This document shows positions 16,140-16,819 of a DNA stretch of 64,000 bases, one piece after another. The position numbers were made by a program, and so were the translations under genes. Positions within the stretch are counted from its first letter, which is position 1. The number at the start of each line of letters is the position of its first letter. The stretch comes from Candidatus Daviesbacteria bacterium (GTDB lineage Bacteria > Patescibacteriota > Microgenomatia > Daviesbacterales > UBA10151): assembly GCA_016186955.1 (NCBI GenBank), contig JACPKP010000003.1, forward strand, positions 194,290-258,289, in the 5' to 3' direction. The notes beneath the pieces are model-generated. The model was not told the DNA's origin, searched no databases, and saw only the letters and a program-made list of their open reading frames with translations.

Positions 16140-16559
16140 ATGTTTGTAGGTTTAATCCTCAAGTACGAGGAAATCCCTCTGGGTTTTGACCCAAATTATG
16201 GGGATTTGGAGGTTATCATGCGGTTTTTCAATACCGCGTTCTCGCTCTCGATGGTCGTTCCTCCCTTCTCTTTGAAGGGTGGGGAGTTGACCGCCGAGCA
16301 GGTGGGTCAGTGGCTGCGGGAAGGAGACGTTCAAAACGTTGCCAACCCGTCGCACGCGAACACCCTCGCTGCGGTTTCGCAGCGGTTAGGTGTTGACGTG
16401 CGGAACGCCGCTGGTGGCCGGGTGGTTTTGAATCCGGGTGACCAGGTTTTGGTTGCCCAGGTCACCTTCCCCCCGTCCGTCCCGCGCGAGACAACGGAAT
16501 ATTCCGATGAGCAGTTGGCTCTCGGGAAATTTTCGTTTGTACTCGTTGAGATCGCCTAG
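16140..16559 (+). CDS. hypothetical ORF within high-GC compositional island (may alternatively be structured RNA)
   Basis: 139 aa ORF; 16230-16510 is ~60-70% GC vs ~40% background, third positions mostly G/C. Confidence 0.3.
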   Translation: MFVGLILKYEEIPLGFDPNYGDLEVIMRFFNTAFSLSMVVPPFSLKGGELTAEQVGQWLREGDVQNVANPSHANTLAAVSQRLGVDVRNAAGGRVVLNPGDQVLVAQVTFPPSVPRETTEYSDEQLALGKFSFVLVEIA

Positions 16560-16819
16560 TTGAAATTCCGATATGGTCCCGATGAAAAGCTCAAGACTGC
16601 CTAAGCCAGCAATGGACGACGCTATCGATGATGTGTACGCTCGAAAGAGACGTACCCAGGGATAGCTTAATGTGTATATACTAGCTCAGGGATACCTAAG
16701 TAGGAATCGATCCGCAGACAAAACCTCCGCAAACCCAAAAGCGGATAGATCGCTTGTTTATCATTTTCAAGTGCGATTTGTCCCGCGATGCGTATCTTGC
16801 AGTTTTCATTCATGCAACT

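Follow-up and report, generated by a model that had tools for sequence, protein, structure and literature searches.

A GC-rich island in a Candidatus Daviesbacteria chromosome is probably the coding sequence of a long-resident DUF1874-like gene with a highly structured, adenine-poor mRNA

We analyzed a window of 64,000 nucleotides (nt) of Candidatus Daviesbacteria DNA (assembly GCA_016186955.1, contig JACPKP010000003.1, positions 194,290-258,289 of the forward strand), which contains a short and very GC-rich island. The best explanation of the island as a whole, and in our judgment probably the correct one, is that it is the coding sequence (CDS) of an intact, long-resident gene of the candidate phyla radiation (CPR), which specifies a protein of 113 amino acids (aa) and has a hyper-structured, adenine-poor mRNA.

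In sliding windows of 100, 200 and 300 bp, the GC content peaked at 67% (position 16397), 65.5% (16291) and 61.3% (16227), respectively, compared to a mean of 41.2% for the window (standard deviation (sd) 5.1 points for 200-bp windows). These values agree with the initial annotation, made from the letters alone, of an island of about 60-70% GC in a genome of about 40% GC. The composition is also unlike the rest of the window, as stated there, with the second-highest 200-bp peak in the 64 kb reaching only 57%. Contigs that were assembled independently from four separate sequencing runs (Logan) reproduce positions 13140-17913 or parts of them with 0-8 mismatches, and they cross both island borders with identical neighbours on each side. 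The DNA runs of the source samples are SRR12113383, SRR12113384, SRR12113424 and SRR12113430. The check for chimeric assembly that had been recommended, made here on the Logan assemblies, thus found the island intact in all four runs, and a chimera is ruled out.

An open reading frame (ORF) of 139 codons, described initially at 16140-16559 and deposited as MBI2595425.1, is present in the island, but the real gene has 113 codons and starts at ATG 16218. The features of the gene region are as follows.

16218-16559, plus strand: coding sequence of a 113-aa protein, predicted to be a divergent DUF1874 (AcrIII-1/Crn2-like) protein; GC-rich, A-poor, hyper-structured core
16208-16212, plus strand: Shine-Dalgarno sequence GGAGG, 5 nt before the ATG; AGGAG is conserved in alignments of the 5'-untranslated region (5'-UTR)
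16140-16217, plus strand: in-frame extension of the 139-aa ORF, 5'-UTR and outside the gene; homologues start at Met 16218

The start was assigned to ATG 16218 because homologues align from this methionine and because a Shine-Dalgarno sequence precedes it. The deposited annotation (MBI2595425.1) begins the gene 26 codons too early, and these extra codons fall in a hairpin of the 5'-UTR. At one of the related loci, which we designate by L numbers, a stop codon is found two codons upstream of the gene start (L005).

A homologue search of 5.8 billion proteins retrieved the identical protein, annotated as hypothetical, in a metagenome-assembled genome of Candidatus Daviesbacteria, and 27 further homologues of 113-117 aa, all aligned from Met 16218. 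The mean column identity of the 28 family members (E <= 1e-22) is 65%. The motifs FNTA.SL.M, N.ANP.H.N.L.A and G.R..L are invariant in this set, and PRET.EY is nearly so. Among 12 codon-aligned homologues, the mean pairwise differences at codon positions 1, 2 and 3 were 0.27, 0.21 and 0.58. This variability of the third position indicates a translated gene. The GC content by codon position was 0.62/0.38/0.66 for the 139-aa ORF and 0.64/0.42/0.70 when counted from the true start. Judged by these comparisons, the gene is complete, conserved, translated and under purifying selection. The idea of a purely non-coding structured RNA with an accidental ORF could draw on the very stable fold of the region and on the covarying RNA structures that flank the ORF on both sides (see below). 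However, the ORF stays open at 113-117 codons in every homologue, substitutions are dominated by the third codon position, and the Shine-Dalgarno sequence is conserved. Moreover, AlphaFold predicts from the family alignment, with high confidence (pLDDT 96), a protein of known fold, and no conserved RNA fold exists within the CDS, making an accidental ORF hardly conceivable.

Scans of the protein against Pfam, PHROGs, NCBIfam and PADLOC returned nothing usable. The AlphaFold2 model from the family alignment (pLDDT 95.8, pTM 0.87) was then compared with PDB structures. The top 16 matches were all DUF1874 proteins (best E 5e-7, Foldseek probability 1.00), with TM scores of 0.67-0.76 to twelve stand-alone DUF1874 chains and 0.59-0.72 to Csx1-Crn2 fusions, so that the predicted model has the DUF1874 fold. 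The matched entries comprised 6scf (SIRV1 AcrIII-1 with cyclic tetra-adenylate, cA4), 2j85 (STIV B116), 2x4i (SIRV1 ORF114), 2j6b (AFV3-109) and 8y7f/g, the match in the last case being the Crn2 half of Marinitoga Csx1-Crn2. Among viral predicted structures (BFVD), the top matches were THSA-485A and STIV proteins. The best of them, 102 aa long, comes from Thermoanaerobacterium phage THSA-485A (E 3e-9, 29% identity). The duf1874 gene of this phage, which may differ from the matched 102-aa ORF, abolishes cA4-dependent type III immunity (10.1101/778746).

Profile searches pointed to the same superfamily. In a collection of 1.84 billion proteins, the family profile retrieved 171 cluster representatives at E <= 1e-3, and 46 of the 106 that were scanned matched PF08960 (STIV_B116-like) with a best E of 2e-29, which provides a transitive link between the family and this Pfam model. 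Residues M12, H46, T49, L71, D75 and R90 are nearly invariant across the 106 superfamily members. H46, which is invariant in the 28 family members, aligns with the catalytic H47 of SIRV1 gp29 in a hidden Markov model (HMM) alignment to 2x4i and is the candidate catalytic histidine. H47 of SIRV1 gp29 is an absolutely conserved general acid, the loss of which costs more than 2,500-fold in activity (10.1101/778746). In the same HMM alignment, with a match E of 0.13, S9, S11, N48, T49 and Q81 sit at the positions of S11, N13, S49, T50 and Q81, and the invariant R68 lies 2 residues from the position of R66 of AcrIII-1. The lid of AcrIII-1 is formed by loop 82-94 with R85, which closes over cA4 (10.1101/778746). 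In our model, a loop at residues 84-96 with R90, followed by a short helix, is found where the cA4 lid sits, and is about 5 residues longer than the AcrIII-1 lid.

Taken together, the profile and model comparisons identify the protein as an apparently very divergent member of the DUF1874 superfamily (STIV B116, AcrIII-1, Crn2) with the catalytic residue intact. Enzymes of the AcrIII-1 type bury cA4 in a homodimer and convert it to A2>P. The window protein would most likely act as a dimer, too, and bind and cleave a signal of the cyclic oligoadenylate type (cA4 or a related ligand), His46 serving as putative general acid and the 84-96 loop (Arg90) as putative lid. Known AcrIII-1/Crn2 proteins include SIRV1 gp29, STIV B116, B. 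subtilis YddF, the phage THSA-485A protein and Marinitoga Csx1-Crn2. The window protein resembles them in its length of about 110 aa, in its fold, in the invariant histidine at the catalytic H47 position before the second helix, in conserved Ser/Thr/Gln residues at predicted ligand-contact positions, and in the Arg-bearing loop and short helix at the putative cA4-lid site. It differs from them in that it escapes the Pfam model and has only 12-21% identity to the solved members, in that the lid loop of its family is longer by about 5 residues and carries a motif of its own (FPPSVPRET.EY), and in that the subfamily was found only in CPR chromosomes amid housekeeping genes and in no virus, plasmid or type III CRISPR locus. 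Within the known superfamily, the protein thus represents a new branch specific to CPR bacteria. No hint of function came from the domain fusions found in distant relatives, and one match among them was a WD40 false positive.

The unusual composition of the gene concerns one base in particular. The sense strand contains 15.8% A, compared to 31.0 +/- 2.8% in 14 control genes, and the T content is normal (25.4%). What appears as a GC island is a depletion of adenine on the sense strand. Codons ending in A are almost absent (GCA 0 of 11, CCA 0 of 7, TCA 0 of 8), and all 6 arginine codons are CGN, whereas the genome prefers AGR. Lysine accounts for 2 of the 113 residues, as opposed to about 8% in other window ORFs, and is near background in L001, L015, L020 and L022. 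The GC content at third codon positions (GC3) is 0.70 in the gene and 0.40 +/- 0.06 (maximum 0.49) in 49 other window ORFs, bearing out the early impression of G/C-ending codons foreign to this genome.

The same bias was found in relatives. The fraction of A at third positions is 0.03-0.17 in most homologues, compared to 0.20-0.39 in their own backgrounds, and in every homologue tested (13 loci) the GC3 exceeds that of its own locus by 0.12-0.33, the GC3 of the gene tracking that of its host. On this comparative evidence the A depletion is family-wide, and the anomaly is very unlikely to be a recent import. The initial annotation had offered, as one of two readings, a recently acquired gene fragment from a high-GC donor. 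In such a horizontal transfer, the gene or a piece of it would not yet have had time to adjust to the host. GC content, GC3 and codon choice strongly unlike the rest of the window, and the varying neighbourhoods of the gene among genomes, would fit such an event. Nevertheless, we regard it as very unlikely. The gene is complete, and all homologues reside in low-GC CPR contigs, each above its own background by the GC3 offset of +0.12 to +0.33. The window gene and the L001 gene are only 69% identical in nucleotides and 69% identical in amino acids; this is the sole flank-to-flank DNA comparison, closer relatives (83% aa identity) being known at the protein level only. The window annotation contains no mobility genes, flanking direct repeats are absent, and the neighbours are housekeeping genes. 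The subfamily had no match in phage and plasmid collections (tblastn) or in viral-contig collections (protein profile). Finally, a donor effect explains neither the depletion of A alone at normal T nor the codon-shuffle z-scores described next. Compared with a horizontally acquired genomic island, the locus shares the atypical composition, but it has neither mobility genes nor a close donor, and its anomaly is common to all homologues.

Folding of the coding RNA was assessed by a shuffle test, in which synonymous codons were permuted among positions with the same amino acid, leaving protein, codon usage and composition unchanged. The window CDS folds at -164.5 kcal/mol, compared to -136.7 +/- 5.3 kcal/mol for the shuffles (z -5.3). 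The CDSs of eight homologues gave z-scores of -2.4 to -6.4, and fourteen control segments of 342 nt from other window genes gave 0.09 +/- 1.14 (minimum -2.1). The coding RNA is selected to be folded, with synonymous codons arranged for near-complete pairing. A single conserved RNA fold inside the CDS was sought among 12 homologues and not found; the degree of pairing is conserved and rebuilt in each lineage, not one structure. The depletion of adenine fits such folding pressure because G and U each have two pairing partners and A has only one. The alternative initially offered to recent acquisition, a structured RNA that is GC-rich for stability, survives in part: the sequence encodes a protein, but the excess pairing of the CDS (z -5.3) and the covariation of a 3' element (see below) support the structural half of the proposal.

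The base composition could in principle have a mutational cause, namely very heavy transcription leading to an excess of G+T and a loss of A on the non-template strand, with RNA structure as a by-product. G does exceed C and T greatly exceeds A on the sense strand, and a near-consensus promoter lies upstream. However, the shuffles keep the composition, yet in nine genomes the RNA with the native codon order exceeds them in stability by 2.4 to 6.4 sd. With 28-30% A, the UTRs of this transcript are not depleted of adenine, and a hairpin and U-run between promoter and gene speak against unrestrained expression. The protein itself is poor in lysine in the window, though not in every homologue. We therefore consider a purely mutational origin unlikely and retain selection for folding.

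The gene is surrounded by further RNA elements, which together with it would form a module of about 715 nt (16086-16799), its ends joined by a 13-bp stem, with a 5' hairpin and a 140-nt 3' element. The elements are listed in order.

15940-15968, plus strand: promoter-like site of the sigma-70 type, TTGACT-17-TATAAT with TG extension, 11/12 matches; likely drives the module
16007-16082, plus strand: leader hairpin (16007-16074) and U7 (16076-16082), terminator- or attenuator-like; folding energy -23.7 kcal/mol, z -1.8 (weak)
16086-16098, plus strand: closing stem, 5' strand CAAGAUACGCAUC, pairs with 16787-16799
16109-16168, plus strand: long 5'-UTR hairpin; RNAalifold with 7 loci gives 25 pairs, 13 of them changed on both sides, and a consensus energy of -33.5 kcal/mol
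16566-16706, plus strand: multi-stem 3'-UTR element of about 140 nt with the invariant loops GAAAAGCUCAAGACU and AGCUUAAUGUGUAUAUACUAGCUCAGG
16739-16786, plus strand: variable hairpin beside the closing stem; relatives have a hairpin of different sequence in the same place
16787-16799, plus strand: closing stem, 3' strand GAUGCGUAUCUUG, complement of 16086-16098

The 12-mer ACAAGATACGCA (16085-16096) recurs as its complement at 16789-16800 and nowhere else in the 64 kb (0.17 expected). The same repeat pair brackets the gene in L001-3, L019, L020, L022 and L025, and L015 has a doubly changed, compensated pair, CCAGGATACGCA/TGCGTATCCTGG (CCAGGAUACGCA/UGCGUAUCCUGG). Extensions of the stem covary (UC/GA in the window, CC/GG in L019, GUUCGGU/ACCGAAU in L025). 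In 7 loci, the closing duplexes comprise about 13-19 bp and have energies of -22 to -32 kcal/mol. Promoters comparable to that of the window are present upstream in L001, L020, L019, L022 and L025, and in some relatives about a dozen bases separate the end of the promoter from the closing-stem 5' strand.

In some relatives, a predicted ribozyme lies downstream of the gene. Positions 8571-8629 of L001 match the type III hammerhead (RF00008) with 31.1 bits and E 3e-4, below the gathering score of 48.5, and in L001 and L020 this predicted hammerhead starts directly after the closing-stem 3' strand. A hammerhead is also found downstream of the gene in L004/L017 and in L005. All have the canonical CUGANGA...GAAA core, and stems I, II and III vary among L001, L004/L017 and L005 and stay paired. 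The L005 sequence, which had been left out of our custom model R1 due to its misalignment by MAFFT, was matched by this model independently (27 bits, E 2e-5). A permissive Rfam scan of 50 kb of loci misses the hammerheads owing to the size of the search space, and model R1 recovers them. Cleavage is predicted to occur 7-8 nt downstream of the closing-stem 3' strand. No hammerhead was found in the window, either with Rfam in 15000-18000 (E <= 10) or with model R1 in the whole window (E <= 1). The hammerheads of the relatives resemble known intergenic type III hammerheads of bacteria in their canonical core and in the three covarying stems directly downstream of a gene, but unlike these they score below the Rfam gathering threshold (31 vs 48.5 bits). 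In full-text searches for hammerheads together with DUF1874 or CPR bacteria, we did not find a hammerhead placed right after a stem that pairs transcript ends.

A second hammerhead-like ribozyme was observed on the plus strand of L004, a Saccharibacteria contig, at 10125-10179 (R1, 31 bits, E 1.4e-6), about 3.4 kb downstream of the first. These sequence matches suggest that hammerheads are used repeatedly between genes in these genomes.

The predicted hammerhead site 7-8 nt beyond the 3' strand and the promoters that end about a dozen bases before the 5' strand indicate that the strands of the closing stem mark RNA ends. This argues against DNA-level elements, as which they could otherwise be read: the conserved 12-bp inverted repeats might be recombination or transposition ends of an invertible switch or of a small non-autonomous cassette. 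Conservation of the repeat core across lineages in which the rest has diverged, the different neighbourhoods of the unit and a topoisomerase IB gene that abuts it in the window all lend themselves to this reading. Against it, there is one repeat pair per locus and none elsewhere in the 64 kb, target-site duplications are absent, no recombinase is conserved beside the unit, and the extensions of the stem show covariation, G-U pairs and a bulge. The orientation is the same in five assemblies (the window and the 4 independent read-set assemblies). Altogether, we give a DNA element little credence. As for specific candidates, an inverton is not supported, since inverted repeats are present but a conserved nearby recombinase is lacking and all five assemblies show one orientation, and a multi-copy miniature inverted-repeat transposable element was rejected because the repeat pair occurs once per locus.

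The RNA elements inside the closing stem are conserved as structures. The 5' hairpin contains several G-U pairs and is therefore specific to the plus-strand RNA. RNAalifold identified 39 pairs in the 3' element, of which 15 are compensated; pairing holds for 94.6% of cells, compared to 30-42% with slid partners, and the covariation score is 0.32 compared to at most 0.09. The covariation analysis that had been advised thus came out in favour of the 3' element. A covariance model (R2) scores 151 bits in the window and also finds the element in L001, L019, L020, L022 and L006, only downstream of this gene; the motif had no match in the viral-contig collection. The stretch 16560-16830, which had been described as hairpin-rich and non-coding, indeed holds this structured element and the variable hairpin and nothing coding.

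A permissive scan of 15000-18000 with Rfam 15 gave only chance-level microRNA and small nucleolar RNA matches (E 0.8-4.5), and a scan of 10 related loci at gathering scores gave tRNAs only. With the Infernal/Rfam scan suggested at the outset, no described family thus matches the 5' hairpin, the 3' element or the module. The 'DUF1874 motif' RNA described by Weinberg et al. (2017, PMC5737381) is integron-like and distinct from the present elements; it does not occur here and was rejected as the identity of the module. The more surprising part of the finding is the mRNA architecture of the module, for which neither Rfam nor the literature searched yielded a counterpart.

The leaders of some relatives (A-run, hairpin, U-run) are stronger than that of the window, with z-scores of -3.8 in L001, -4.6 in L020 and -5.9 in L017, and the leader hairpin may play a role in attenuation. 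Such leaders were observed at L001 7712-7780, L020 2736-2803, L017 7892-7947 and upstream in L004; they share AAAGCCAAG...UUGGCUUUUUU and have no Rfam match. In L001, two copies of CCUUGG are alternative potential partners for the 5' strand of the leader, an arrangement reminiscent of attenuators.

Two types of RNA offer themselves for comparison with the module. Panhandle-type stems are known from rRNA precursors, where RNase III cuts them, and from the termini of some RNA genomes. Here, too, a conserved long-range duplex of 13-19 bp brackets a whole functional unit, but the unit is a small mRNA and not an rRNA or a genome, cleavage is only hypothetical, and the core of the stem is conserved in sequence, suggesting a specific partner. 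Highly base-paired coding RNAs are represented by the genomes of small RNA phages and by rod-like viroid-like or Obelisk RNAs that carry hammerheads. The module has in common with them the selection for pervasive pairing, the ends brought together and, in relatives, a nearby type III hammerhead. In contrast to them, it is a single-copy chromosomal DNA gene in ordinary assemblies, with one ribozyme per unit, no replicase and no sign of circular RNA.

Combining these elements, we propose the following course of events. A transcript would begin at about 15975, or near 16085 by processing, and extend to about 16800, and its ends would pair. In many lineages, a ribozyme would generate its 3' end by cutting 7-8 nt past the stem. 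This compact RNA with little A may resist ribonucleases (RNases) that are single-strand-specific and prefer A, and may also limit translation. The protein would degrade a messenger of the cyclic-oligoadenylate type. This arrangement would suit an enzyme that needs persistence or careful dosing while a nucleotide alarm and collateral RNases are active. The link that the mRNA of an off-switch enzyme is built to outlast collateral RNases is attractive as a hypothesis. In its most far-reaching form, the proposal is of an undescribed 'armoured' messenger of CPR bacteria with sealed ends, a hammerhead 3' end in many lineages and an adenine-purged duplex CDS, that is, an antidote transcript surviving cyclic-oligoadenylate-activated RNases, in which the 140-nt 3' element would act as a novel RNA with a regulatory or protein-binding role and might sense the same signal or bind the encoded protein. 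We consider this version speculative and rather doubtful.

Several observations weigh against the overall interpretation. The Pfam DUF1874 model (PF08960) misses the protein (hmmscan E > 1 for the 139-aa form, none at E <= 0.01 for the 113-aa form), and the direct profile match to the PDB sequence 2x4i is weak (E 0.13). No type III CRISPR, CARF, SAVED or cyclic-nucleotide gene was found in the 64 kb or in 10-16 kb around the relatives; a cyclase or effector gene was likewise not seen locally, and the supposed substrate is therefore without a visible source. The window copy has no hammerhead, having lost it or never had it. The core of the closing stem is conserved in sequence and does not covary, which would also fit a recognition site for DNA or protein binding, and transcription might stop ahead of the 3' strand of the stem at a weak terminator-like hairpin (16739-16755). 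For the whole module, a folding energy of -310 kcal/mol (z -9) was obtained, but its minus strand also folds well (z -11.4) because the region is rich in inverted repeats. For the CDS, the 12 homologues together give a weak consensus fold (-12 kcal/mol) with few compensated pairs, so that a purpose of the CDS structure would follow from statistics and not from covariation.

The genomic setting of the module is an ordinary chromosome with housekeeping neighbours. The window encodes an aldehyde dehydrogenase, UppS, Fmt, Def, MreB, MreC, PBP2, PyrD, PyrF, DprA and a Clp ATPase. This gene content lends no support to the putative element in which the island had been placed, and a prophage or other element as context was rejected on the same grounds. 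The 64-kb window contains no CRISPR array and, apart from a generic helicase-type (DpdF-like) match at 30097-32286, no defence system. Neither the virus or mobile-element setting typical of AcrIII-1 nor the type III CRISPR setting typical of Crn2 was found in the local context. Relatives occur on Saccharibacteria and other CPR-like contigs with unrelated and often housekeeping neighbours, such as ribosomal-protein and tRNA-synthetase genes. A bacterial topoisomerase IB gene (Topoisom_I + Top1B_N_bact; 16820-17911, minus strand) is convergent with the module, its stop 20 nt from the closing-stem 3' strand, and adjoins the gene only in the window and in assemblies of the same organism (L026-L029), at no other related locus.

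Some further features of the window and the related loci were recorded. The immediate upstream neighbour (13176-15938, plus strand) has an unusually high A content (35%) and encodes an orphan protein of 920 aa, and a second orphan of 583 aa lies at 5861-7612 on the minus strand; neither had a match in Pfam, PHROGs, NCBIfam or PADLOC. A lesser GC peak at 45354-45451, inside ORF 43968-45872, is an imperfect tandem repeat of the CCAACACC type with periods of 12, 18 and 48 that probably specifies a linker rich in Pro and Thr. Two tRNA-like genes of unusual length (106-110 nt) are found on the plus strands of L005 (5028-5133, 49 bits) and L014 (7725-7834, 38 bits). The former carries about 34 inserted nt in its variable region, and the latter lies about 170 nt upstream of the DUF1874-like gene. 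In L015, the module measures about 980 nt, and a 123-aa ORF called at 8486-8857 follows the gene and overlaps the closing-stem 3' strand. In L023/L024, the gene is closely followed by an ORF of 122 aa. These ORFs are putative second genes.

The findings caution that a sharp GC island alone is not evidence of foreign DNA. They provide a clean, family-wide example of selection on synonymous sites and composition that leads to a hyper-structured, adenine-poor mRNA, and they add a recurring association of a gene with hammerheads and three covariation-supported RNA elements without Rfam match, namely an end-closing stem, a 5' hairpin and a 140-nt 3' element. The design of this mRNA may represent a strategy for RNase resistance or dosage control, which is directly testable. 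The AcrIII-1/Crn2 superfamily is extended into the chromosomes of CPR/Patescibacteria, far from viruses and CRISPR loci, and one may ask which cyclic-nucleotide signal is used by these reduced epibiotic bacteria or by their hosts.

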